From positions 1 to 64,000 of IMG/VR virus record IMGVR_UViG_3300045738_001212: a stretch of 64,000 nt of DNA; one strand, 5' to 3'. This DNA comes from a virus. Positions 12,745 to 40,403 of this stretch are shown here, piece by piece. Each line of letters begins with the position of its first letter. Within the stretch, counting starts at the first letter, position 1. A model generated the notes under the pieces. That model was given only the letters and a program-made list of their open reading frames with translations. It was not told the origin of the DNA and made no database searches. The position numbers and the translations under genes were made by a program.

Positions 12745-13908
12745 TTACATATCACCCAACTTAGCAAGCTCCTCCAGTTTAAGGCTTGGCCGAGCAAGTC
12801 CTCCAACTGCTGTGAACACTGTCAGGTTTGGTTTGTTTCCACTATAAATTCCACTATGAACAATATTTCCGGGCTTTAACATTCTGGAAAGTTGTTCGAA
12901 TGCCTGATCTAAATCTCTTTGAGGAATGTTATCTAGCTGCTCTTTCCCACCGATAACAACGGCAGCGGCGCAAGTGCCACTTGATAAGTCCAATCCTCCA
13001 GATAATAGATTGTTTTTTAGATTTTCCCTTACTGCTCTCGAAATGCTTACTGCATCTTTCCAGTCTGCTACGGGAGAAGCTCCAAATACAATACACCCCG
13101 AATCAAGAAGTGTTTCGTAATCCTTTTTATCGAAAGCTGAATAACTGCTATCCTTAGAAGCTGTAAGGTTGAATAAGTTAAATAACCCACACATACTCAT
13201 ATTTGCGGTTTGCCAAAAATTGGAAACAACAAGGTTGGGGTAAAGCTTGGTAATTTTTTCATTATCTAAAATGATAAGAGGAGACACAATCCCCTTGTCA
13301 ACAAGATCGAAAGCTTTCTTTAGCGTGTTGTGAGCGTTGGCGTTAACCTTTTTTCCTTCGGAAGCTTTAGGTAAAGCGAGAATAACTCCAACTTGTTTCG
13401 CGGAAGCTTTCACTGTCTCTTGGAGTTCCTTGGCCGCGTAAGCCAACGGCTCCATCATCCCTGCTCCAGAGCCGCCACCAGCACCAAGGCTAATAATGAT
13501 TCTGTCTAATTCTTCCCCGAAAGAGTACTTCATAAAATCGAGTACATCTTCAGACTTCTTGTTGAAAAGCTCCTCCGCTACCCTCGGGTCTTTTCCTGCT
13601 CCACCATCCCCAATACATAGTTTGTTTTCTATTAACTTGAGGGTGTTGAGGTCTTGCATGGCGGTGTTGATTGCCGCAGTTTTCCTGTATCCAAGTTGGT
13701 GAAATGTTTCCGCAATTCTTGATCCACCTTGTCCGGCACCAATGAAGGCGAATTTAAATGCTACATCAATTTCGTCCTTTATCTCTGTTTTTTTCTCCGG
13801 CTCTGGCTCTGGCATGGGAATGTCAGGCAGTGTAATGTCGATGTCTGCTTCCCCATACACGGCTTTAATTTGCTCGTCGTTTTGTTGCTCTTGATTTTCT
13901 TCGCTCAT
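12745..13908 (-). CDS. tubulin/FtsZ-family GTPase (PhuZ/TubZ-like)
   Basis: IGAGQGGSRIA, AINT, GAGKDP, LGAGGGSGAG signature, LDNEK, T7-loop-like FDKKD; SD TAAGGAG. Confidence 0.9.
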   Translation of the reverse strand: MSEENQEQQNDEQIKAVYGEADIDITLPDIPMPEPEPEKKTEIKDEIDVAFKFAFIGAGQGGSRIAETFHQLGYRKTAAINTAMQDLNTLKLIENKLCIGDGGAGKDPRVAEELFNKKSEDVLDFMKYSFGEELDRIIISLGAGGGSGAGMMEPLAYAAKELQETVKASAKQVGVILALPKASEGKKVNANAHNTLKKAFDLVDKGIVSPLIILDNEKITKLYPNLVVSNFWQTANMSMCGLFNLFNLTASKDSSYSAFDKKDYETLLDSGCIVFGASPVADWKDAVSISRAVRENLKNNLLSGGLDLSSGTCAAAVVIGGKEQLDNIPQRDLDQAFEQLSRMLKPGNIVHSGIYSGNKPNLTVFTAVGGLARPSLKLEELAKLGDM

Positions 13909-21045: not shown

Positions 21046-21987
21046 CTAAAGTTTCTTTAAGTCGTAAGCTAACTGAAGGTCAATCTTCTCGTGGAGACAA
21101 CCAGAGAAAAAAATCTTCTTAATTATTCTAGATGATTCTTCTCGGTTTTTAACAAATAAAAATTGAACATGAGGATACTTCTGGATAAGAGACCTTACGT
21201 TACGAAAGATAAATTCAGGAGTAACTCGTATCTTTTTTGATATGTAAGGAAGATACTTAAACGAAAGAGCGTTGCTCAACGTGTCTTCTACCAAAACAAC
21301 CAAGTAGATTTCCTCTTCTTTGGCTCTTTGAATTTCCCTTTCGAACCTGTCGAAATTTTTAACGCTCAAAGTAGAAATAAAATCGGATAAAGATTTTCTT
21401 TCTATATGGCAATTGCAAGTAACGCTAGGGTCACTCAGTGCGTAGTCTCCAGCCTTTAACGTTTTGGGCTCGCTAGGCCAATCAAAATCCAAGGGAAGCT
21501 GTTCTCTGGTATCGATATAAATTACGTAGTCATCCTTGTTGTAAGCAGCCCCCGTCATAATTTCTCCAAATTTATTATGCTTACTCTTCAGGCCCAGCTT
21601 TTCACATAGCTCATAGTAATCTCCAAACAATGAATCATAATAATAAACAGGCGGGAACATGAGTGTCCTCAGTTCGACCTGTGATGGAGCGTAAACGAGC
21701 TTCTTAGCGACTTTTCTGGCCTTGAGGAGGTTTATACTGTACTTTTTCGCATCGTCCTCTGGAGCCTCCTTGAGCCACATTTTCAAGTTTGTACGAGAAT
21801 TAAAATCAGTAGCAAAATACTGTTCCTTATTTTTAAATTTTATGAACTTACCATCGTAGAGGTCATGCCTTGGGTGGTATTGCTGATAGTATTCAGCTAT
21901 GCGAAGACTGTGAGCCTTCAGGTGTCTGTGAAGGCTCTTGCTGTCTTGGAATTCTTTTTCACAGACCTTACAAGAAACACTATCCAT
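21046..21987 (-). CDS. ERCC4/XPF-family nuclease with N-terminal C2H2 zinc finger
   Basis: CKVC...HLKAH; IDTREQ, GDY, IERKSLSDF motifs. Confidence 0.85.
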   Translation of the reverse strand: MDSVSCKVCEKEFQDSKSLHRHLKAHSLRIAEYYQQYHPRHDLYDGKFIKFKNKEQYFATDFNSRTNLKMWLKEAPEDDAKKYSINLLKARKVAKKLVYAPSQVELRTLMFPPVYYYDSLFGDYYELCEKLGLKSKHNKFGEIMTGAAYNKDDYVIYIDTREQLPLDFDWPSEPKTLKAGDYALSDPSVTCNCHIERKSLSDFISTLSVKNFDRFEREIQRAKEEEIYLVVLVEDTLSNALSFKYLPYISKKIRVTPEFIFRNVRSLIQKYPHVQFLFVKNREESSRIIKKIFFSGCLHEKIDLQLAYDLKKL

Positions 21988-28235: not shown

Positions 28236-28511
28236 CTTACATAGATATACACTTAGATAGGTAGTCTACGAAAAGCCTTCTTAGTTATGCGAACCAATTG
28301 AAATGCAAATAAAAATTTTAAAAAAGATACCCCGTCGGGATTTTTCGAACCCTAATGCAACTGAAAGGTTTGGTCTCGGGGAGACTGAAAAATAGCACCC
28401 CCCTACCGCCTGACAATTTCCATTTAGAAAAAATTTGCAATATTGGGGCCGGGGGGAATTGCTTTTTTTATTTTTCTTGACGAGTTCCCGTTTCTGTGTT
28501 ATATTGTACCC

Positions 28512-28718
28512 ATGAGCGAGACCTACAATGACCCTTCTGATTCCACCCGTGTGCGCGAGCGTTGTGAAGACGCGCCGTGCTGCGGCTGCTGCGGCCCCGA
28601 TACCGTGGGCGGCTACGACCCCCAACCCTACGGCGGCTTTGAAGGCCAGTGGGCTGGTGACGGCTCCGGTTTGGATGACCTCGCGGACTTTAACGCGATG
28701 GAGGGCATGGATATGTGA
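28512..28718 (+). CDS. small acidic Cys-rich early protein (RCEDAPCCGCC), leaderless; start corrected
   Basis: TTGACG-N17-TATATT-N6-ATG. Confidence 0.75.
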   Translation: MSETYNDPSDSTRVRERCEDAPCCGCCGPDTVGGYDPQPYGGFEGQWAGDGSGLDDLADFNAMEGMDM

Positions 28719-28766
28719 ATAACTTTACCCTTGACAAGGGGACGTTCGTGTGTTAATATTATACCA

Positions 28767-28943
28767 ATGATGAACGAGACGACATTTGAAGTTAGCTGGG
28801 CCTACGGCGAAACCACCTTTATCAACGCCCGTGACGAGGCGCAAGCCGAGCGTATGGCCGCGCAGATGGGCAGAGCCCACGGGTTGGGCAAGGTCAAGTG
28901 GGTGCGTCACGCATCGCTGGACAAGGCAAACAGCGAGTTTTAA
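28767..28943 (+). CDS. small early protein (x-A-x-D/S-E-x-x-A family), leaderless; start corrected
   Basis: TTGACA-N17-TAATAT-N7-ATG. Confidence 0.7.
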   Translation: MMNETTFEVSWAYGETTFINARDEAQAERMAAQMGRAHGLGKVKWVRHASLDKANSEF

Positions 28944-29095
28944 CGACTTACCCCTTTAACTCGCCGCGAAGCGGTGAGTTAAGGAAGCCCCCGCACTTTT
29001 TTCAACTCAGTGCAACAAAAACATCTCAGGACAGATGCGCTTATTTCGTTCCGATTAAAATTTGCTATTTTCTTAATTTAAATTTGCTGAATTTG

Positions 29096-29557
29096 CTATT
29101 TTCTTAATTTGAAAAACTTATGTTTACCAACGATTTTTATAGGTGTGCTTGTGCGCGTCCAATAGTTGTGAGTGTTAACGTGACAGTAGTGGTCGGCATT
29201 GCCAACGTAGCTATGCTGTAAGTTGTTTATGTTTGTTGCAAGCATCTTTGCATAGGCCGCGTGTTGGTGCGTCTTTAATAGCGTGGGTAGTTTCTTTCTA
29301 TTAGGGTCACGCTCATCCCAACAAGAGAATTGCCATATCCTCTTACCCTTTTGCAAGCAGACTTGCTTTGCTGTTTTGTTTCTATTGATTACACGTTGAG
29401 CGATAACACAGGCCACGCCATACATACCGGCTTCGCCCTCGCCACGCGCTTCGCCTAAGATCGTCATGGCTACCACGTCGCGTTCGGTATACTCTTCGGC
29501 ACACAGCCCCATCAGTATAATAAAAAGCATGACAAAAAATATAAATCTAACGAACAT
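29096..29557 (-). CDS. cell-wall hydrolase (SleB/Hydrolase_2 family) with N-terminal hydrophobic segment
   Basis: TILGEARGE, VIAQR, QFSCW, ADHY, VGKHKF. Confidence 0.88.
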   Translation of the reverse strand: MFVRFIFFVMLFIILMGLCAEEYTERDVVAMTILGEARGEGEAGMYGVACVIAQRVINRNKTAKQVCLQKGKRIWQFSCWDERDPNRKKLPTLLKTHQHAAYAKMLATNINNLQHSYVGNADHYCHVNTHNYWTRTSTPIKIVGKHKFFKLRK

Positions 29558-29580
29558 AAATAATCCTTTTGTTGAATGTT

Positions 29581-29626
29581 AAAAGTAGGGTGACGCAAGG
29601 AGAGACCACTAACCTTGCGCCACCCT
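29581..29626 (-). terminator. terminator-like hairpin with 12-nt loop UUAGUGGUCUCU
   Basis: 14-bp stem with G-U on minus strand followed by ACUUUU. Confidence 0.75.
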
Positions 29627-29635
29627 GTTCTATGA

Positions 29636-30019
29636 CTACCACCAGCACGAGTAAACTATCTTCCACCCGCCAGCTAGTGCCTTCCTAGCCTTCTGGATGA
29701 ATTCGATGTCGTCATCCTTGTAGCCGTATTCACCTTCATAATCCTCATAGGAATCATTGCCGAAGAAGAAGCCTCCTGTCTCTGGTAGTTCCTTGTCTAG
29801 GATAGCTTGCTCTAGGCTGTCCAAATCCTCCTCGTCAATAGTTACATCAACAAGATTGAATTCTCCATCGCCACCCTTGCTGCGCCAAAGCTCTTCCATC
29901 CACCCTTGCAAGCGATTATGCTTGCGCCAGTAGTGAAGCTCCGTCTTGGTGATGGTGTCGGTGCGTGTGTCTGAATCGTAGTCAGACTTAACTTGATATG
30001 CTGTTTGGTCGAGTCCCAT
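29636..30019 (-). CDS. conserved phage protein (MGLD...YWRK.N.L..W...YSCWW type)
   Basis: recognisable motif; SD AGGAGA. Confidence 0.75.
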   Translation of the reverse strand: MGLDQTAYQVKSDYDSDTRTDTITKTELHYWRKHNRLQGWMEELWRSKGGDGEFNLVDVTIDEEDLDSLEQAILDKELPETGGFFFGNDSYEDYEGEYGYKDDDIEFIQKARKALAGGWKIVYSCWW

Positions 30020-30028
30020 AGTAATCTC

Positions 30029-30954
30029 CTAGTTAGTGGTTGCGGTTGGTAGTGGTGGTAGTGCCAGCGGTTTAGGTAGCGGTGGCAACGGTGGGAGGCT
30101 GGCCATGTAAGCCAATCTCTCTACTTCAGCGAATGAAATACTGAATTGCTTCTTTAAGATAGGCAGCGCAGCCTTAATCTTGTAGAGGCGATAGGCTTCA
30201 GCCTTTGCCTCCTCGTGGGTTGCGCCTTCCTTCTTTCGGGCTTTGATGTGGTTGGTTACTTCAGCAGCCTTGACTGCGTTGCGAGCTTGGTAGGTTTTGT
30301 ATGTCTTCATTGGTAAGAGTATGCCTGAATTTGGTGTTGGTGTCAAGTTTATTCCTATATGGTTACCGCTGAGAGGCCGTTGGCTAGGATGGGCCGCTTG
30401 TGCAACGGCGCGAACGAATTGATGCGATGCCAGTTGAATCGGCGGATGACGTTTTCATAACCGTCACGGCATACCGTAGCGACAAAGCCCCCGTTGCCCG
30501 AAAAGAAGAATTCGTCGGGCGTGAGGATGAGATAGTTTTCAGTCTTGCCGTTGGCCTTGGTGTAGTTGAGTTCGAATGCTTTCTTGGTGTATGTCATGGT
30601 TATAATATACCATGAAAGAGCCTCGTTGTCAAGCAGTTTCTCACAGTGTTTCAATGTAAATCCCTGTTGCCAGTATCACCACGAATGACACGATGCCAAT
30701 AATGAGAACAAAATAAATATCTCTGAAATCGTCTTTCATAATCCCTCCTTGATATAATTATGCGTTCCCATCTTTTCAATAAAATGAGTTTCAAGCATAT
30801 CAAATTGATGCATCGCCGTGCCTCTGTTGTTGGCCCATTCTAACGCCCTAAAGAGTGAACAAGCTTTTTGATAAGTCTCACACACTTGAGCCGCTGCTAT
30901 GTTTTGATGCACTGACGTTGGCACTACGTTTTGTTCTTTTCCGTTTTTGGTCAT
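30029..30954 (-). other. small early genes 30029-30310, 30355-30597, 30736-30954 (starts corrected by promoter position)
   Basis: leaderless promoters / translational coupling. Confidence 0.7.
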
Positions 30955-31064
30955 AAAGGTTTCTTGTGTTTAGGTTTCCGAGTGTAAGAGCCTTTGCCCT
31001 TCTTAACGCGATGCTCACGGGACGCGCTGCCCATGTAGCCCTCTTTGTTTTTCCGCGCTTTCAT
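30951..31064 (-). CDS. 37-aa ArfA-like ribosome-rescue peptide (not in ORF track): MKARKNKEGYMGSASREHRVKKGKGSYTRKPKHKKPL
   Basis: KKGKGSYxRKxKH motif as in ArfA; own leaderless promoter; ATGA coupling to next gene. Confidence 0.75.
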   Translation of the reverse strand: MKARKNKEGYMGSASREHRVKKGKGSYTRKPKHKKPL

Positions 31065-31082
31065 AGTGATAATATACCACTG

Positions 31083-31189
31083 AAACGTCTCACTGTCAAG
31101 GATAAACCACCCAACCCGCCGCGTAGCGGTGGGTTGTTTTAGCTTGCACTGAGATAAAAAATCTGCGGGCGTTTTTCTGACTCACTGTC
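31083..31189. repeat. about 107-bp exact direct repeat (second copy about 33151-33257) containing promoter -35 box, hairpin and 35-bp dyad
   Basis: aaacgtctcactgtcaaggataaaccacc...ctgactcactgtc identical in both. Confidence 0.92.
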
Positions 31190-31194
31190 AAGCC

Positions 31195-31617
31195 TTAAAC
31201 TACAGCCCAGCACCGATGCCCCACGAAACAATACGCTGATTTGGCGATGGGACGTTTCTCTTTTACCGTCACAAAAGTCTTATGCTTGTAAGGGTCGTAA
31301 GTCACCTCCACCCACTTGCCATCCACAGCCATCGTCTTCGCTTGCTTTAGCATCTCTTGAGGGGAAATCATATTTACAACAGGGCGATGCCCGGTATACG
31401 TAATCCACTTACCGCGCACGTAGGCGTGTACGTTCTTACGCATCTCATCCCGGACGCGATCATTGCCCTTGGCACCAACGACGAATTCAACATCATGCAA
31501 CAGAATACCTCTCACATGTTTGGCCACTAGGCCATCGTGTCGGGTACGCACCGAGTAAACCCGATCCGTCTTGTCTCCCCTGTGCAGGTTCCTGTAAACG
31601 TCTACCTTGCTTTTCAT
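31195..31617 (-). CDS. conserved phage protein (VYRNLH...KNVHAYV.G...YDPY type)
   Basis: recognisable motif. Confidence 0.7.
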   Translation of the reverse strand: MKSKVDVYRNLHRGDKTDRVYSVRTRHDGLVAKHVRGILLHDVEFVVGAKGNDRVRDEMRKNVHAYVRGKWITYTGHRPVVNMISPQEMLKQAKTMAVDGKWVEVTYDPYKHKTFVTVKEKRPIAKSAYCFVGHRCWAVV

Positions 31618-31997
31618 TAGTCTACGTTCTCCATGTCGTCGTGCATCATATTCTCAAGCTTGCCAATCTTGTCATCGCTTAACCCCGCTCGCCAATCATC
31701 ATCATCATATTCATTCTCCTCCTTCTCCCAGCGGTATCCCTCTGGCGGCATGATGTGCCACAAATCATTCGCCCTTGCCTCGCCTATGATGTAAGGCTTA
31801 ATCTCTTCCATTGAAACGTCGCCCCATTCATTCTCAACACCCATAACGTAGCCGAAGGCTATGCCGTTTTCGTCTGGCTCTCCCAGATAATACTCCCACA
31901 TATTCCGAAGGATGATGTGCTGGTGAACGGTGAACGCGCTGATGGGTAAGGTGCGGTTGTTTATGGGGACTATGTTTCTAGGTTTTGTAGGTTTCAT
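31617..31997 (-). CDS. DUF2958-like protein, leaderless
   Basis: WEYY...FGYVMG.E.EWGDVS.EEI. Confidence 0.55.
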   Translation of the reverse strand: MKPTKPRNIVPINNRTLPISAFTVHQHIILRNMWEYYLGEPDENGIAFGYVMGVENEWGDVSMEEIKPYIIGEARANDLWHIMPPEGYRWEKEENEYDDDDWRAGLSDDKIGKLENMMHDDMENVD

Positions 31998-32861
31998 TAG
32001 GTATAATGTAACACTTTAGAGGCCGCTTGTCAAGCGGTTTTTTGAGTTTCGACGCCGAACATCTTCTCACCGCGACCCACCCACGAAGGGCCGTCAACGA
32101 GCCACGACGCTGTGCCAGTATCCGACAAGCAAGCTACCGTCGGGCTTTCAATTTCCCCTTCCGTTAAGCCACAGGCGGCCTTGAAGCGGTCAACGTCAAA
32201 ACGCGGGTTGTCCTTGGCAAACTGGGTTGCGGCTAGTGTAGCCAGCACAGCGGCGGGTGTGCCGTTGTTGGCTGCGTTGATGAGGGCGGCGACGAATTCG
32301 AAGTGTTCTTTTGTTGTTTTCATTAGGTATAGTCTAACGCTTTAGAGGCCGCTTGTCAAGCTTTTTATCTGCATCGTTCAATGTCCTTTTCTCTTTTTAG
32401 CTCCGCCTCTTCTTCGTGGGTGAAAAGTCTGCCGAGGGTGATTGACTCAATCTCAAGGCCGATCTTGCTACCGAAATACATATCCCGCACGTTAGCGAAT
32501 GAGGTTCCGGTTGCGGCCCAGCGTGTGCCATTGGTTGTGGTTACGATAAAATCGGTTGTTTCTTTTATGTCTTTCATTAGGTATAGTCTAACACTTTAGA
32601 GACCGATTGTCAAGGATAAAGTTGTCCCCCCGCGCAAGCGGGGGGGGGTTAGCCTAGACCCCCCTGTGCGCTTCCACACAGGCCACCTCTTTAGGGAAGC
32701 CCTTGCGGAGTAGTTCAAGATTGTTGCTGTCAGCCTTACGAATAAGGCGCAACAGTTTAGCGGTGAACCAACTACCCTCTCCACAGAGGATGTTGCCGAT
32801 GTTGTTTTTGTCGTAGTTACTCATTGGGTATACTGTAACACTTTAGAGGCCGCCTGTCAAG
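31993..32861 (-). repeat. four near-identical promoter+ATG cassettes (CTTGACA.GCGGCCTCTAAAGTGTTA...TATACCTAATG)
   Basis: upstream of ATGs at 31997, 32323, 32577, 32824. Confidence 0.9.
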
Positions 32862-33431
32862 CACCAAGTGCGTCCCACGGGTCTACGGGTGCGTTGGGTT
32901 CCTCGTTCCGTTTCATCCAAGGGGTGCGAAGTAACTCCTCCCATTCGCTTGAGCCAACAGCGTCATGATACGCAGCGCGTACTAGCGCGTGGTGGCCGCT
33001 CATTCTCCAATCCCAATCGTTCATATCCTTTGACTTGATAGTGCTGGTCTTGCCCTCTGGTGAGACATAGGTGAACACATGGTTGTTGGTCTTGCGGTTA
33101 GAGTAGAGTAGAAACTTTTCTTTACCTTCCATACGTATAATGTACCACGCAAACGTCTCACTGTCAAGGATAAACCACCCAACCCGCCGCGTAGCGGTGG
33201 GTTGTTTTAGCTTGCACTGAGATAAAAAATCTGCGGGCGTTTTTCTGACTCACTGTCGCATGGCCACGCTTACCACGCATGGGGCCACACGCCGACTATT
33301 TCGCTATTTGGGTGATCGCCTAAAGCGTGAGTCTTGGCTACCGTAAGGGTCATGCCCCAGTAAGAGGCTTCGTAATAGCTGCCCGATGTGAAATTCCGGG
33401 TTCTGATTGTCCAGTTAGATGTTTCGCTCAT
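32030..33431 (-). other. single-gene leaderless units: 32030-32323 (DNPRFD motif), 32365-32577, 32654-32824 (56 aa, unlisted), 32857-33132, 33270-33431 (53 aa, unlisted)
   Basis: each has its own promoter immediately before ATG. Confidence 0.75.
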
Positions 33432-33691
33432 GGGTATAATGTAACACGAAAAACGCTACCTGTCAAGGAAAAACAGTGAGGCTCAAAAAATGCTGCCGCT
33501 TTTTCAACTCACAATCAATTAGGTCAATTAATCACGTTTATATAGGGTAATTGTTTCGCAAGGCACCCCAGTAAAACAGATATTTAGATGATAAGAATTT
33601 CCTATTTACCCCTGATTTCTCCGATGAGAAATACCCCCTTTTTAAGAAATTATATGTTGACAGATAGGCTATTTGGTGGTATAGTATTCTT

Positions 33692-33818
33692 GTTGGTGGC
33701 AATGGTAGCCCTCGCTGAATAAGTGAGTGCCCTCGCAGGAAAGCCCCTAGTGGAAGCGCGACGAAGCTAGACGGTGATACGATACTGGAGGGGTGAGGTT
33801 CAATCCCTCGCACCAATA
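33692..33818 (+). ncRNA. tRNA-like (tRNA-mimic) structured RNA, about 125 nt
   Basis: promoter TTGACA(33657)-N17-TATAGT; acceptor stem GTTGGTG/CACCAAT; D-loop-like AATGGTA; T arm TGAGG-TTCAATC-CCTCG. Confidence 0.75.
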
Positions 33819-33825
33819 ACAATTT

Positions 33826-34023
33826 ATGATGAACGACAAATGTAAATGTGGAGGTTGTGGTGCGCCCGTAGCGTGGGAGTACGACGCCCCTTATCAGGAG
33901 TACCCCGGCGCGAAGGTGTGGGGCGGGGAATGGTTCGTCGAGTGCGAGAAATGCGGGTGGAGCGATGCCACCAAACAAGACTTGAGCCATTACTCCATAC
34001 GCGAGAACACGCGGGGGTGGTGA
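33826..34023 (+). CDS. small zinc-finger protein
   Basis: CGGC...CEKC; stop codon is the first triplet of a 35-bp dyad. Confidence 0.65.
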   Translation: MMNDKCKCGGCGAPVAWEYDAPYQEYPGAKVWGGEWFVECEKCGWSDATKQDLSHYSIRENTRGW

Positions 34024-34148
34024 GTTAAGAAAGCCCCCGCATTTTTTTCAACTCAGTGCAAGCCTTTTCTTTTGTCGATCACGAGTGATCGTCTAAATAG
34101 TTTGTCAATCATATTTCCACTATTTTGATCGTCTAAATTTGCTAAACG

Positions 34149-34179
34149 AAAAGCCCCCCCGCTTGCGCGGGAGGGCTTT
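34149..34179. terminator. intrinsic terminator after DUF932 gene, possibly bidirectional
   Basis: GC stem with GCAA loop flanked by A/T runs. Confidence 0.8.
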
Positions 34180-34199
34180 GGTTCTTCACCCCTTGGCTT

Positions 34200-35093
34200 T
34201 TAGTTCAGAGCCAGCTTGACCACTTCAGAGGGAACGGCCTTGACCAGCTTGTCAAGCTTGGCGGATTGCTCCGCAGCACCCCGCAGCTTCCGCAGCACCT
34301 TGGTGCTAACGGTGTTGGCGTACTCGAAACGCTCCCTGCTCACGTCATGGGTGAGGTGTTGGGTGGCTGCGTTGTAGAGTGTCCACAGATTGCGGGCTTC
34401 GTCTTCCTCGCGGGCGGGATTCTCCCACACCTTGAGGATGCCGTCCTTGACCACGTTAGACAGCACCTTCGAGCGGTTCAACTGGTCGAGGATGTTGCGC
34501 CCCTGCTCTTGCGTGATGTCACGCTCGCCCAAGATGCTGAAGCCTTGCGCGGCTTCGTTGAAGCTTCCGGTGGCTCTGTCGAGAGCGTCCCCGATAAAGC
34601 TAATCTCTACCGCTGCGGTATGACGGCGATTCATGCCGAACTCATTCTCCAAGGTGGTCATGCCGTTGAGGCAAACCAGCCGCACCATGCCAAGCGCGAA
34701 GGATACGCGCAGGGAACGGTCAAAGGAGTTTTGCAGGGTGAGGCGCATTCCTAATTCCATGCCCTTCACTCTGTCCTCGCGCCGTGTGGCGATGGCCGTC
34801 TCATTCGCGAAGTCGTACTGCGCGAACATCTTCTCGCCGCGACCAGTCACGACAATGTGGCGGCTTGTGGGAACCATCCCGCGAGACTCAAAAGCCTCTT
34901 CGGCATTGGCAATCAAATCACCGTTTTGCACAAAGCCGTACTGCTCCGTGCCCCAACCTAATTCCTCGCCCGTATCGGTACGGACGTGCGCGTATACGCG
35001 GGAGCGGTTGCTGTTGGGAAGGGTAAGGGGGACACGCTCCACGGTGTAATCGAAAGCGGTGGGGTCGGAGGTTTGAATAGTGTTTCTGGCCAT
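34200..35093 (-). CDS. DUF932/DUF945-family protein
   Basis: VRTDT...Y..VQN, NSFD.S, RLVCLNGM, RHT, NLWTLYNAAT. Confidence 0.85.
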   Translation of the reverse strand: MARNTIQTSDPTAFDYTVERVPLTLPNSNRSRVYAHVRTDTGEELGWGTEQYGFVQNGDLIANAEEAFESRGMVPTSRHIVVTGRGEKMFAQYDFANETAIATRREDRVKGMELGMRLTLQNSFDRSLRVSFALGMVRLVCLNGMTTLENEFGMNRRHTAAVEISFIGDALDRATGSFNEAAQGFSILGERDITQEQGRNILDQLNRSKVLSNVVKDGILKVWENPAREEDEARNLWTLYNAATQHLTHDVSRERFEYANTVSTKVLRKLRGAAEQSAKLDKLVKAVPSEVVKLALN

Positions 35094-35315
35094 GATTTGT
35101 AGGTCTTTCTTGGTTAAGGGTTATCTCTCACTCACTACAAAGAGTGTATCACCAATCCACTATCCTGTCAAACCTTTTTTTCTGTCATTGGATACAAACC
35201 CGCCGCGCAGCGGTGGGTTTGGGCTTGCACTGAGTTAAAAAATGTGCGGGCGTTTTTACGACTCATTCCCTCCGTTAACCCATCCCTCCGGGCTGGGTTT
35301 ATATTTACACGCTAT

Positions 35316-37603
35316 TTAACTCTCATTCTTTTGCTTATTGCTAAACGGCGAAATCGACTCGGCTCCGCGCAAGTGATGCCGGATACCTAGTTCCACCTTA
35401 TGTTCAGCAGTATAGTCCCAATCGTCTTGGTCAAGGCTATACTCTGATTGGTATGCTGCCTCCATGTTGAAATTGAAATCACATAGAGTCGTGTCGTCAG
35501 TAAGGTTATGCTTCTGCACATACTCACTCAATGCCTCTGCGATAATCTTTATACGCAAGGGGTCGCCTTCAAGTATCATCTCATGCTCTTGTATCTTCAT
35601 TTATCCTCCAATCTCTCGTGTTCTAAAACATCATACTTATTAGCGTCGTCGAGGGTATAACCGTATTCCAGTTGACAGTCGTCTCCATAGTCTCCCTCCC
35701 CACTCATTGCCGTCTTGATAGCGTCGGCCTCATCCTCTGCCTCTACCACGATGTAGCAGTAGTGAACCTCTGGAACCTTAACTGTGAATGTTTTCATTTA
35801 TCCTCCAATCTCTTAAACTTGTCTACTATGATATCACAAACATCTTCCGTAATGGATTGCTTCTCTTCGTCTGTGAACGTGAATGGTGGGGTGTAGCCCT
35901 CCATGTATGTAATCACATCTTCCTGTAGCTGCTCCTTCACCTCTTTAATGACAAGGGATTGCGTGTGCTGAAATGGTTTGCGTAATGTTCTCATGCTTAA
36001 TCCTCCACTCCGTAAATTTCTTCGTAGTGTTCAATAATCTCATGGTCGTCTATGTTATCCATGCCAACGCAACCTTCCCAAAGGACTTGTTTCAAATCCT
36101 CGTCTGAAAAGCCCTCCCATTCAGATTCAAAAAGACGCTCGCGCATCGCTTGAATTTCTTTATCTGTATATTCTTTTACTGTGTCAGTCATAATTTAATC
36201 CTCCAGTAGATGGTCTTTGGCTGCTTCAATTACCTCTTGGTAATACTCGTTGTCCATTGGCTTAAAGCCTTCGAGACAATCTGAAATGGCGCATAGGCCA
36301 TCGACTATTCTGCTTCTGTCCACCATTCTCCCATTGTGGCTAATTGGGCCTTCATCTTGTTTCATGCTGTGATGTACTCTCCTTCCTCATTGAATACGAG
36401 TTCGAGATGTTTCAACTCCCAAGCGTTAGGTGCGTCCTTGAACCATTGGGTGTCCATGAACTTAATCCATGCGCGAGCGTTAGCGTGGGTGTAGGAAATG
36501 CCATCTGCAAACATCACATAGCTCTCATCCCATGTGTTGTAGAAGGTGGCCGTGTAGGCTTTCATTGTAGGTTTCATTACAAGTAATATACCACACCGGA
36601 GCGTGGTTGTCAAGGACTATTCGCTTAACGAGATTTGGTGGTCGCTCTCGGGAATGTTTACCTTTGAGATGTTTTCCTCCCACCTTTGATTCTCAAACAT
36701 GTTGGCGACGGCTTTTGCTACATCTTCTTTTGAAACGTCAGAGAAATCCCTTTTAGGTGTGCTGCCTAATACCTCACCCCAAGGGACATTGATTCTCCAC
36801 CCGACTGCTAAACACTCATGCCATACACCCTTCACGCAAACGTAATCACCCACCATCATTGAGCGAACTTCGAGCTTCTTAAAGAGGGTACACTCCCGAC
36901 CACTCCCGTTGTTCCAATCCTCCCACACCGCGTCAAGGATGTCTGGGTCTGTGTACTCACGCCCCTTGCTGTCCTCTACTGGGTAGTCCAACCAGAACTT
37001 CTTACATTGCTTCTCGGTCATGTCCCGATATTGAATTTTAACTCTTATCATAATCGTTTGCTCCGTGGGTGTAGGTTTCGCTCATAGATATAATGTAACA
37101 CACAAGGTACTACTTGTCAAGAGGTTTCTTCTTAATCATATCCAGTAACTTCTTATCGCACACGCGGGGGTGCTTTCCCCACTTCTCAACTACGTCTGCC
37201 ACCTGCTCACCCTTCTCATAGTCGGGTAGCTTAACAACGTACATGGAGTCACGGTCTCTTAACGTCTCATTGTATACCACGATCATCGGGTCGTCTGAAA
37301 GACGAGCCGATTGAATAGCCTCCTCCTCGGAGTTGGCATCTACGATATAGGTAGCCGAGTGCATTTCAGTTGTTATGACTTTATACTTCATGCCCAGTCC
37401 CCCTGTGAGTCTCCATCTATACCGTGCCTTTGGCATAGCTCATCCCATTCTGTCTCCTCGTAGCGTGACTGCCTTGATTGAGTGTCAAGTGCTACTTCTT
37501 TTAAGTGATTGGTAAGTTCTCCTACATCCTCGAATTGGATGCGAACGATCTTCTCCATTGCCTTGTCTAGTGCTGCTCCATGTAGGTTTCTTGTAGGTTT
37601 CAT
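35316..37603 (-). other. run of small acidic early genes: 35316-35600, 35597-35797, 35794-35994, 35997-36191, 36362-36577, 36617-37051 (RSMMVGD, YodL-like motif), 37110-37391, 37388-37603
   Basis: coupled stops/starts with GGAGGA embedded in ...ED(K)* C-termini. Confidence 0.7.
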
Positions 37604-37705
37604 TACAAAGACTATACCCTACTTCTACCCCCGTGTCAATATCAAAGTTTTTTAAAGTTTTTAATTGCACTGAGTTAAGAAATGTGCCCCCGCTTTTTTA
37701 ACTCA

Positions 37706-38242
37706 CTACCTTGTGATGGGTTTGCTGCACTGTTGACATCGATATTTGCGCCCACGCCTAATCCTATTATGTATTGTCGTGGATATCATATGAGGTCTAT
37801 CAATACAGCCACAGGTGTATTTCCACCGTCTCTGTTTCTTAGTGGATGAGTTCGTGGTATCATAGTTGTGACACCTATCAGGACGTAAGCCAAGCTTACG
37901 CATTACGTTCTTCCATTCGCGCCCGTGCGCCGTGCCACCGAATAGGCAATCTTTAATTAGGTGCGCGTACTCATGGCCAAGCGTTTGCTTTATAAAATGC
38001 TCGGTGTTTTCTTTTAAGAGAATGTAGTTTATTCGTATTTCGTTTTTATTAGAGTTTGCCGTTCCGGCCACCCTGCCTTTCAAGTTAAAGCGCAGCCTTG
38101 TCTCTGGCATACTATGCTTAAACTTTTTCTCTGTGTACTCGTGCAACTCCCTTATTCTATCCTCACACAAACGCACAAGGTCAGCCGTCCTTGGCGCGGC
38201 CAGCCCTGATTCCGTCTCTGTGAAATGTTCTATGATGATCAT
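37706..38242 (-). CDS. SprT-family zinc metalloprotease
   Basis: AGTA, HEYAH, HGREWK, YTCGC, YRCQQC. Confidence 0.9.
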   Translation of the reverse strand: MIIIEHFTETESGLAAPRTADLVRLCEDRIRELHEYTEKKFKHSMPETRLRFNLKGRVAGTANSNKNEIRINYILLKENTEHFIKQTLGHEYAHLIKDCLFGGTAHGREWKNVMRKLGLRPDRCHNYDTTNSSTKKQRRWKYTCGCIDRPHMISTTIHNRIRRGRKYRCQQCSKPITR

Positions 38243-38300
38243 TGTTTTCTAGATATCCAAATGTAGCCGAGCCAAAGTATAACCGCTATGAGTACCCACA

Positions 38301-39098
38301 TTATACAGCCTCCATTTGTTTGCGCTTGCTGTAGCCGTTCCACCCACGCCGTTTCAGTTCCTGTAGTGCTTGGCTTGCTGCGCTACCCTTTGGCTGTGTG
38401 CCGTGAATGAGTAAGGCAAAGCTCTTTGTGCCGAATGCTGCGTGGTAATCATCGTGGTCAATTTCAAAGTCCATTGCATCAGCTTGTTCCTCGCTGTAAA
38501 CTACCTCCGCGTACTTTAGGCCATGCTCGACAATCAGCGCGTCATGCTTGCCACCGTAGGAGGCGGTAAGCGCAAAGTTTGAAGGGATTGAATCAATACG
38601 CGCCACCCAATACTTTAGGCTTTTCGTGTATGCGTAAAAATGTTTGTCAGGCATACGCCGCGCAACTTCAAGCCATGCGTCAAAATACGCTTGATTGAAA
38701 AAGTCACCGCCAACATGGACACGCATGATATCAAATTTTTTGGGAAGCATCGATTCCAGCAAATCAGCAATGGCTTTCACTTGGTCTTTGTCATAACGCC
38801 ATGCGTCCATCATCACTTCTTTAATTGCCTCAAAATTACGCCACACCATTGCGCGAGTGTTTTTGTACTGTGATTCAGAGCTTGCGGCGAAGCAACGAAA
38901 TTCCGTGTCAGGCCCATCCGTGATTTTACCCGTTTCCCTGTTGGCCTTGGATAAGCATTCTTTGGCGGCGGGACAAGTCCACCCACTAGGCAAAGTGAAG
39001 GATTTAATAGTTTTGCCGAGCCGGTTTGCCATCGCGATAAGCTTGGCGTTGGCTTGTGAGAATGTGAGAGTCAAAGGTTTAGTCGTAGTAGGTTTCAT
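38301..39098 (-). CDS. Gp88-like protein (Cys motif, RVHVGGDF)
   Basis: LPSGWTCP..C...CFA, RVHVGGDFF, FYAYTKS. Confidence 0.8.
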   Translation of the reverse strand: MKPTTTKPLTLTFSQANAKLIAMANRLGKTIKSFTLPSGWTCPAAKECLSKANRETGKITDGPDTEFRCFAASSESQYKNTRAMVWRNFEAIKEVMMDAWRYDKDQVKAIADLLESMLPKKFDIMRVHVGGDFFNQAYFDAWLEVARRMPDKHFYAYTKSLKYWVARIDSIPSNFALTASYGGKHDALIVEHGLKYAEVVYSEEQADAMDFEIDHDDYHAAFGTKSFALLIHGTQPKGSAASQALQELKRRGWNGYSKRKQMEAV

Positions 39099-39135
39099 GG
39101 TTATAATATAGCAGGTTTCGCTGTGTCTGTCAAGG

Positions 39136-40403
39136 TTAAACGCCTATAAAATGCGCTGCGGTTTTCTTCGTCCAAAAGCCGTCGGCATCTATATTCCCAC
39201 CGTTACTCGCTCGCCCACCATTGCCCACGGGAATGGGAGCAACACTATACTCGCCCATGTTTGAATGTTTAATGAAGGGTTCGGAAACTAAACTGTTGAA
39301 CCTTAAACGCGCAAGTAGTCGAGCGTATCGCCTAATCTTTTCCTTGAGCTTGTTTCCGAATTTGCCTAGTAGGTAGGCGAGGGATGAGTTGTAAAGATAC
39401 TTCTTATAGCTTTCCTCTGTCGTCCAGATGTAAGCGAACCTCTCAGACATATGAATCAACTCGCCGTTGTAGGCTCCGTGGTTGTACCAACTGAAATCTT
39501 GTGATTCGATTTCCTTGGGGTCATTAGATTGGATACCAACGGCCCAGCTTGAGCCTTGGGGACAATAGAACAGTGAGGGTTTCTTTCTAGGTTTCATATG
39601 TATAATGTAGCATAAAAAAGTCCCCCTGTCAAGGGGGACTTTCAGTGTTAGGCCGAGGCTAAACCTTTGCCGTAGTCGATTAAGTCGAGGTCGTGCGTTG
39701 CCGCAGCAGTCGCGTCAGTGATGTCCGAGAATTCGAATATCTCAATCGCTGGCAAGTTGTTGCCGTACTTTCCCTCTGGGAGGTCTGAATACTTTGGCAC
39801 TACGGCCTCGCGGAGAAGGGCGATCTTCTTTAGGTCATCTCTGATGAGTTGGGCCTCCATTCCGTCATTGCCGAGATTATGCTCGTCGATTCTTGTCTGT
39901 GCTTCTGCGACATCTTTTTCAAGTCGCACGATATGTTTGCCGAAGGCAATCTCTAGTTTGTTATTCATCTAGAACAATGTACCATCGATTACCCTGTTTG
40001 TCAATTAAAATCGATTAAAACTTTTTAAAATTTTCCGCTTGTAGTGAGTGAAAAAATGTGCCGCCGTTTTCTAAACTCATTGCAAGAAAAAAAGCCCCCC
40101 CGAAGGGGAGCCTCTCATGAACGGTTATTTAACCTTTATTTATTTGCTTATTATTTACGGCTTATTTATTTGCCAATTATTTAATTAATATTTATTTGCT
40201 AATTATTTAATCATTTCATCGCTTACATCGTCCTCTACTATTGCCCAGTCTACTTCCCATGAGCCTTCTACATATGTTCCATTGTCTGGTAAGCCTATGC
40301 CCATGTCCGACTCTGCTATCTCAGCAGCGTGTTGGCGCGTGTCCGACTTAACAGTTACCCAACCATACATCTGCCAAGCTACTGGTACTTTGTATTCTTT
40401 CAT
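39136..40403 (-). other. hypothetical early genes 39136-39597, 39648-39968, 40203-40403
   Basis: ORFs with leaderless promoters or coupling. Confidence 0.7.
40087..40113 (-). terminator. intrinsic terminator (UUCG loop, U7)
   Basis: ggctcccc-ttcg-gggggc-ttttttt on minus strand. Confidence 0.75.

Follow-up and report, generated by a model that had tools for sequence, protein, structure and literature searches.

A conserved, polar 35-bp dyad at the ends of early transcription blocks in an uncultured phage

The early region and the eight dyads

The window analysed here, the first 64 kb of the 157,997-bp virus record IMGVR_UViG_3300045738_001212, carries in its early region eight copies of a 35-bp imperfect inverted repeat, referred to below as the dyad, which is a real and polar cis element that is under selection and located where early transcription blocks end. 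The phage genome has a G+C content of 43% and an estimated completeness of 91%. No close relatives were found among catalogued phages by megablast or tblastn, and the large terminase shows only about 24% identity to that of Bacillus Tsamsa-like phages, which places the phage remote from all catalogued ones.

The early region extends from approximately 28 to 42 kb and comprises 22 of the 30 exact matches in the genome to the promoter pattern TTGACA, 16-18 nt, TAnnnT. The early promoters are host-type (sigma70-type) and most have an extended -10. About 20 of them, located between 27000 and 42000, are near-identical (TTGACA, a 17-nt spacer with TG, TAyAnT); examples are those at 30632, 32033, 33466, 39133 and 41407 on the minus strand and at 28477 and 28731 on the plus strand. 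At 17 or more early promoters the ATG lies only 6-7 nt past the -10, and the early mRNAs are therefore predicted to be leaderless. Many of the early open reading frames (ORFs) open with a common AAACCTAC-type motif. Nearly all of the approximately 30 small ORFs between 28 and 42 kb are ORFans with respect to Pfam and PHROGs; the only matches were to SprT-like, GP88, DUF932, L5 gp82-like, cell-wall hydrolase and PhoH families, and there was no recognisable DNA-binding regulator among them.

Most of the region is transcribed from the minus strand, but a codon-usage score rated three plus-strand ORFs as coding-like (28512..28718, 28767..28943 and 33826..34023), each of them located behind its own plus promoter (28477, 28731 and 33657), while the long minus ORFs that overlap them (28281..28625, 28725..28910 and 33538..33990) scored as non-coding. 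The short plus-strand cassettes thus appear to be real units, forming two inverted modules within a minus-strand region:

28477..28943, plus strand: inverted module of two cassettes, with promoters 28477 and 28731 and ORFs 28512..28718 and 28767..28943, ending at dyad copy 1
33657..34023, plus strand: inverted unit with promoter 33657 and ORF 33826..34023, ending at dyad copy 5

An earlier note on this DNA, made from the letters alone, had reported eight copies of a 35-bp dyad at gene-module boundaries, six of them with a TTGCAC flank and two of them touching stop codons. All eight were found at its coordinates, each exactly 35 bp long:

28975..29009, plus strand: copy 1, after the plus-strand leaderless ORF 28767..28943 and convergent with 29096..29557 (minus); GTGCAA at 29010-29015
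31150..31184, minus strand: copy 2, 10 nt past the stop of 31195..31617 (minus), followed by GTGCAAGC, a GC hairpin and promoter 31099
33218..33252, minus strand: copy 3, identical to copy 2; it closes a one-gene cassette, 33270..33431, that is absent from the relative described below
33477..33511, minus strand: copy 4, without the GTGCAA flank and not immediately preceded by a coding-like gene; the -35 of promoter 33466 follows after 10 nt, and the divergent plus promoter 33657 is 145 nt away
34021..34055, plus strand: copy 5, whose first bases, TGA, are the stop of 33826..34023 (plus); convergent with 34200..35093 (minus)
35231..35265, minus strand: copy 6, 50 nt past the stop of 35316..35600 (minus), followed by a GC hairpin and promoter 35171
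37671..37705, minus strand: copy 7, abutting the stop of the SprT-like gene 37706..38242 (minus) and 31 nt upstream of promoter 37639
40045..40079, minus strand: copy 8, preceded by a canonical intrinsic terminator (40096-40110 and a U run) and followed by promoter 40004

The two contacts with stop codons are those of copies 5 and 7; at copy 5 it is the plus-strand ORF that scored as coding and not the minus ORF with which it overlaps.

A scan of IMG/VR with the exact pattern revealed a single further carrier, contig 3300035204_000621, which is about 80% identical to the window phage and syntenic with it. It possesses six dyads and no others, four forward and two reverse, in orthologous places and orientations, and its reversed dyads are preceded by reversed promoters and genes. 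The length of the dyad is exactly 35 bp in all 14 copies of the two phages. Pattern scans of metagenomes and of GTDB genomes gave 14 and 15 single matches, respectively, none of which resembled the dyad family or the phage; consequently these scans provide no host-genome counterpart and no further carriers. Beyond 3300035204_000621 there was no multi-copy match in the viral, metagenome and genome collections.

Within the 64-kb window a pattern of the invariant positions matched only the eight copies even when up to two mismatches were allowed, against a chance expectation of 0.01 (100 shuffles). A position weight matrix scan of the whole genome scored the eight sites at 43-51 bits and nothing else above 8 bits. 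The motif is thus not scattered, and the impression of the earlier note that no copy lies outside an 11-kb stretch holds for the genome.

When all copies are aligned in one direction, the invariant positions are T1-G2-A3-G4-T5, A11-A12, C14, C20-A21, T24-T26 and C32-T33-C34-A35; G19 is fixed in the window as well. Among the 13 distinct copies that the window and the relative provide, C14, C20 and A21 never vary, and ten have the flank GTGCAA on the 3' side. Because the core bases C14 and C20-A21 and the GTGCAA flank are asymmetric, the dyad has a polarity. By this measure the copies at 28975 and 34021 are in plus orientation and the other six in minus orientation, and in the six window copies that have the TTGCAC/GTGCAA flank its side switches with the orientation of the core, as had been described. 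The core had been seen as an asymmetric GC-rich stretch of about 9 bp; it is indeed asymmetric, but it is not free, C14, C20 and A21 being invariant. The central 7-mer is identical within two classes of copies (31150/33218/35231 and 28975/34021) and unique in each of the other three. The copies at 31150 and 33218 lie within a 132-bp repeat (31058-31189 and 33126-33257) of 95% identity. The outer half-sites TGAGT and CTCA are approximately 31 bp apart, a distance that would correspond to about three helical turns.

The placement of the dyads bears out the proposed association with module boundaries. They divide the region from 28.4 to 42 kb into nine blocks (seven minus, two plus) of one to ten genes each, and every early block terminates at a dyad copy. 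All seven copies that follow a gene point in the same direction as that gene, including those of the two plus-strand units, at a distance of 0-123 nt from the stop. For six copies the next co-oriented promoter follows after 10-59 nt. The distances to the -35 are 10, 31, 40, 50, 50 and 59 nt, with 46 nt in one orthologue, and no convincing helical phase between dyad and -35 was found across this range. The two plus-oriented copies, at 28975 and 34021, lie at convergent junctions without a promoter. Of the units that belong to the approximately 22 early promoters of the region only 8 have a dyad, two of these copies being promoter-less.

At three sites (31150, 33218 and 35231) the dyad is part of a composite of 110-130 bp that reads, in the sense direction, dyad, GTGCAAGC, GC hairpin and promoter. 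The same dyad-hairpin-promoter composite is present at three sites of the relative, giving six sites in total, and at three window sites the dyad is combined with a promoter but no hairpin. The elements that accompany the dyads are:

31071..31099, minus strand: sigma70-type promoter co-oriented with the dyad upstream of it; the others of this kind start at 33167, 33466, 35171, 37639 and 40004, and in most of the six the ATG comes 6-7 nt past the -10
28958-28980, 31112-31136, 33180-33204 and 35196-35220: GC hairpins with a GCGNAGC centre, motif on the plus strand

The four GC hairpins are always on the low-coordinate side of the dyad, regardless of dyad orientation, and this is also true for the relative. 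Runs of TTATTTA-type units with a period of 11-15 nt, that is, phased A/T tracts, were observed between a gene end and a boundary element at 40125-40209, 29074-29106 and 35312-35344.

A duplex site or a hairpin

The pattern of conservation suggests how the dyad is read. In the six orthologous copies the 18 columns that are invariant in the window showed 2 changes in 108, compared with 30 in 102 elsewhere in the dyad (Fisher p = 7e-9). Inner arm positions drift by approximately 30%, and positions 6-9 and 27-31 vary freely. There is no sign that pairing between the arms is maintained: 81% of the cells of the 13-pair dyad are paired, compared with 83% when partners are shuffled, and the covariation score was lower than in 496 of 500 shuffles, in a test of limited power, since the two related genomes supply just 13 distinct copies. 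Dependable complementarity is restricted to the A:T pairs and the invariant outer pairs. Selection for sequence at fixed positions and for a fixed length is characteristic of duplex DNA recognised by a protein, and among the suggestions of the earlier note that of a protein-binding site appears to fit this pattern best.

A comparison with the operators of dimeric regulators points the same way in part. The half-sites TGAGT/CTCA and AA(A)/TTT are invariant, two-fold symmetric and at fixed spacing, but neither a fixed distance to the promoter nor an identified cognate protein goes with them.

The symmetry of the dyad might also be explained by a stem-loop, formed in RNA or in extruded single-stranded DNA, that serves as terminator, 3'-end stabiliser or processing site. 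It would then be the structured half of an element of the kind known as promoter-early stem-loop (PeSL) in T4-type phages, whose stem-loops are lineage-specific and precede early promoters (PMC2839356, PMC4122927). At most sites the dyad indeed follows a stop within 0-50 nt and in the sense orientation of the upstream gene, and several arm positions can pair as G-U in the sense RNA. At copy 5 an upstream GCGGGGG can pair with the core ahead of a U7 run, in the manner of a terminator. We nevertheless consider a stem-loop function unlikely. Besides the missing covariation and a level of pairing below that of shuffled partners, the dyad alone folds at -2 to -9 kcal/mol, near the value of about -3 obtained for shuffles; the hairpin fold is lost in two orthologues, and three copies have a 5' arm that pairs preferentially with upstream sequence. 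The length is rigid although the sequence of the would-be loop varies. Nor does the dyad have the build of an intrinsic terminator, since its stem is AU-rich, the U run is inside the 3' arm, and the tail that follows is GUGCAA instead of a U tract. A terminator scan listed none of the dyads, and only copy 5 forms such a structure, using sequence from outside the dyad. Copy 8 lies behind a true terminator in both the window phage and the relative; it is probably little transcribed, and a role in RNA is unlikely there. Searches with Rfam and ARAGORN gave nothing at the dyads, so that no Rfam family speaks for a structured RNA. (The 3' end of the DUF932 gene gave a sub-threshold Rfam match to the small RNA BjrC68 at 34143-34209, minus strand, with 24 bits and E = 0.014, which is probably due to chance.)

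Three further candidates were discarded. Pairing of the core GCAC with the flank GTGC was rejected because the variants, inspected by eye, have no compensating changes. The dyad is not a promoter itself, as neither strand offers a usable -10, whatever the spacing. An IHF site (WATCAANNNNTTR plus an upstream A/T tract) was rejected since the best matches, with 1-3 mismatches, were no better than those in random 59-nt windows of the genome.

The dyad could, finally, be a functionless repeat of the REP (repetitive extragenic palindromic) or MITE (miniature inverted-repeat transposable element) type, or a decayed palindrome derived from a promoter, that is simply carried along by the cassettes. 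It is confined to one narrow lineage in the collections searched, its flanks resemble inward-pointing -35 hexamers, and in 8 of the 13 distinct copies the antisense strand reads TTGCAC-N12-TGTG, which resembles the layout of the local promoters up to the extended -10. A relic of this kind is hard to reconcile with the strong purifying selection on particular positions seen between the two phages despite a divergence of about 20%, or with copies that kept their place and orientation while the flanking DNA was replaced. No transposase accompanies the dyads and there are just eight copies, all in one functional region. We give this explanation very little credence.

Cassette junctions at the dyads

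The earlier note had interpreted the dyads either as recombination sites for the shuffling of gene cassettes or as a protein-binding array, and had asked whether gene-content breakpoints map to them. In the comparison with 3300035204_000621 breakpoints do fall at dyad edges: homology between the two phages stops 0-24 nt from a dyad edge at 6 of the 16 edges, in several cases within 0-8 nt. Junctions of cassette gain, loss and replacement were found at the edges of five copies, and also at promoters. The clearest case is an insertion or deletion of one cassette. The window has the dyad at 33477, promoter 33466, a 53-codon gene and the dyad at 33218, while in the relative one dyad of the 33477 type takes the place of both and runs straight into the sequence that lies downstream of 33218. 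Near 28975 and 34021 the neighbouring genes have been replaced and the dyad retained. The remaining ends of homology blocks are at promoters, start codons and gene junctions. In a rough tally the dyads with 25-nt margins make up about one third of the intergenic DNA and hold one quarter of the block ends, so we do not claim that breakpoints are enriched at dyads relative to intergenic DNA.

The dyads might instead be dedicated sites of site-specific recombination, similar to lox or attC, at which cassettes are excised, inserted or inverted. The geometry is fixed and the core asymmetric; there are classes of copies that share a central 7-mer; two copies form the exact borders of one cassette indel, and several homology breaks lie 0-8 nt from an edge; and two cassettes are inverted along with their dyad. 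The enzyme, however, is missing. Six-frame searches of the whole 158-kb genome, estimated to be 91% complete, with PF00589, PF00239 and PF01797 gave no match, with positive controls, so the observation that the window contains no recombinase can be extended to the entire genome with regard to tyrosine recombinases, serine recombinases and Y1 transposases. Tyrosine-recombinase sites have a spacer of 6-8 bp. With arms of 13 bp the dyad is left with a core of 9 bp, most cores differ from one another, and the inner arms drift, so that the lox-like geometry seen in the earlier note is not supported. The absence of a recombinase, the heterogeneous core of 9-11 bp and the drift of the inner arms (about 30%) together make a lox-like system unlikely. 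The shared central 7-mers of the two classes are explained equally well by recent duplication. No match of 14 nt or more outside the region was shared with the guide-like arrays of the TnpB of this phage. Junctions elsewhere are at promoters and gene junctions, where breakpoints are as frequent as at the dyads, and the shuffled genes also occur in sister phages whose dyads are different. Dedicated recombination sites are therefore highly improbable; of the proposal for cassette shuffling, the breakpoints at dyad edges are supported, and the lox-like geometry and mechanism are not.

A crossover inside a shared patch is expected to leave homology breaks at the edges of that patch. Edge breaks together with junctions at promoters point to general homologous recombination between repeated pieces of regulatory DNA. 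The dyad with its flanks constitutes a repeated patch of 40-130 bp which, along with the repeated promoters, would offer substrates for homologous recombination, and such recombination may add, delete, replace and invert cassettes. Shuffling of cassettes would then be a by-product of homologous recombination.

Searches anchored on proteins identified three sister contigs which do not have the 35-bp dyad but possess other palindromes in a slot of a similar kind:

3300009370_000127: a dyad of invariably 37 bp, present about 20 times and often abutting a -35; its arms are G-rich/C-rich and its centre is GC(A/T)GC
3300030329_004107: a 47-bp dyad in six copies, its TTGACA/TGTCAA arms enclosing a GC hairpin
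3300030329_005612: a perfect 20-bp palindrome beside a G-run/C-run hairpin

The 37-bp dyad of 3300009370_000127 is likewise without covariation, and this contig has the same genes in a different order and partly inverted. That unrelated palindromes occupy the slot in sister phages fits a putative phage-encoded binder which co-evolves with its site.

Several other features were observed in relatives. AAATAA arrays similar to the A/T tracts of the window precede the 47-bp dyads of 3300030329_004107 (L022: 11328-11424, 14328 and 17080). Between 14468 and 20567 of L022 there are ten sigma54-like -24/-12 motifs (TGGCACGCATCCTGCT) before small genes, of which none was found in the genome of the window phage. 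Relatives also have a class of promoters in which a GGACA-N5-TGTCC-type dyad stands in place of the -35, upstream of an extended -10 and a leaderless ATG, which suggests that these promoters are activator-dependent, perhaps middle promoters:

L027, 13341-15521: GGACA-N5-TGTCC-type promoters
L028, 14186-17600: promoters of the same type
L022, 17549-19360: promoters of the same type

A proposed docking site within composite cassettes

With somewhat better than even confidence we regard the dyad as the place at which a protein docks within a composite cassette of the PeSL kind. It would be a cis-acting boundary element of the hyperplastic early region. A putative protein of two-fold symmetry, most likely encoded by the phage, would read the dyad as double-stranded DNA, making contact with the outer TGAGT/CTCA half-sites and with the A and T tracts, while the asymmetric core bases C14, C20 and A21 would give the site its polarity. 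Joined in most cases by a GC hairpin and the next sigma70-type promoter, it would be one of three parts of a composite cassette of terminator and promoter. The dyad itself would probably insulate or regulate adjacent blocks, either as a roadblock or aid to termination or as a regulator site of the adjacent promoter.

Several observations weigh against such a docking site. The searches gave no candidate binder: with Pfam and PHROGs the early ORFs came out as ORFans, and genes of the HU/IHF and HTH_3 types were absent from the genome. Since the distance to the -35 ranges from 10 to 59 nt and two copies are promoter-less, a simple operator would misfit some copies. Copy 4 is not located behind a coding-like gene. 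The core of copy 5 and the GC run upstream of it make a terminator-like hairpin, so there may be a role at the RNA level at that site. The rule of orientation could result from the shared descent of whole cassettes and not from function, and the limited power of the covariation test counts here too.

Other roles raised in the earlier note are a centromere for the tubulin and a signal for DNA entry or anti-defence; the last two might take the form of a pause signal and of an array of decoys. The genome does contain a tubulin/FtsZ-family gene (12745..13908, minus strand), situated amid large genes with collagen repeats (tail-fibre-like), and the sites do look protein-binding. Yet no copy is closer than 15 kb to this gene, and they are dispersed over 11 kb at the ends of transcription units, which speaks against a centromere; centromeres of the TubZ/TubR type consist of an iteron array beside the tubulin partition operon, and there is no such array here. 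The orientation of the dyads tracks local genes, nothing was found that favours an entry or decoy function, and we attach next to no probability to any of the three. (In another part of the window an ERCC4/XPF-family nuclease gene, 21046..21987, minus strand, directly adjoins the large terminase gene.)

Among known systems the closest parallel is provided by the PeSL cassettes described for the T4-type phage pairs RB49/phi1, PST/T4 and nt-1/KVP40 (PMC2839356, PMC4122927). Homologous recombination has been proposed as the mechanism of their exchange (PMC2839356), and a specific binding protein has been the subject of speculation (PMC2839356, PMC4122927). The locus studied here shares with them short repeated composites joined to near-consensus sigma70 early promoters, with a motif that is specific to the lineage. 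It is likewise a hyperplastic region of small ORFans in which gene content and order differ between relatives, and junctions of indels and replacements between close relatives lie at the cassettes (6 of 16 dyad edges). A further trait of PeSLs is the formation of excised mini-circles by recombination between neighbouring cassettes. The differences are considerable. In our case the conserved dyad is not the terminator stem-loop, there being a separate GC hairpin at four sites; it is AT-armed, rigidly 35 bp long and polar, and shows no covariation expected of a hairpin. Only 8 of the approximately 22 early promoters have a dyad, the mRNAs appear to be leaderless, and the phage is remote from T4.

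Recombination sites resemble the dyad in some respects. Like loxP and FRT it has a length of about 34-35 bp, inverted arms and an asymmetric centre that confers polarity. Unlike in these sites, however, the centre comprises 9-11 bp and varies among copies, the conserved parts of the arms are the outer 5 bp and the A/T tracts, and a cognate recombinase is absent from the genome. The attC sites of integrons are also imperfect palindromes at the 3' end of a cassette gene, oriented with the gene, variable inside and with conserved outer boxes. They are 57-141 bp long, whereas the dyad is fixed at 35 bp, has ends of the form TGAGT...CTCA in place of the RYYYAAC/GTTRRRY boxes, and is found without IntI, attI or Pc, each cassette having its own promoter.

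REPs and BIMEs (bacterial interspersed mosaic elements) are, like the dyad, imperfect intergenic palindromes of about 35 bp that follow genes in either orientation, and REPs are known to bind proteins. They occur in hundreds of copies throughout a genome and have GC-rich arms, whereas we found eight AT-rich dyads in one region of a phage, with neither compensatory changes in the arms nor a RAYT (REP-associated tyrosine transposase). Taken together, the dyads resemble the known PeSL cassettes, of which they would be a variant peculiar to this lineage, more than a system of lox-like recombination.

A bolder alternative is that the 35-bp dyad and the palindromes of the sister phages are docking joints of a dedicated, protein-guided system for cassette exchange. 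We consider this very unlikely. If it were true, the system would be a phage counterpart of the integron with an enzyme outside the known recombinase families, each lineage would have its own pair of site and protein, and the polar core would set the orientation of the cassettes.

In large uncultured phages the fastest-evolving genes, those for host take-over and counter-defence, reside in early regions composed of tiny self-expressed cassettes, and the insulation and exchange of such cassettes are known only from the work on PeSLs in a few T4-type phages. The present locus permits a cleaner dissection, because the dyad is physically apart from both the terminator hairpin and the promoter. A separate conserved dyad, and its replacement by unrelated palindromes in sister phages, predict a lineage-specific DNA-binding protein that marks cassette borders. 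If no such protein exists, the dyad would be one more PeSL-type regulatory repeat, of local interest only. If it does exist, it would be an insulator of phage transcription, or a guide for recombination, of a new type, and the pairs of site and protein might be used as orthogonal parts in synthetic biology.

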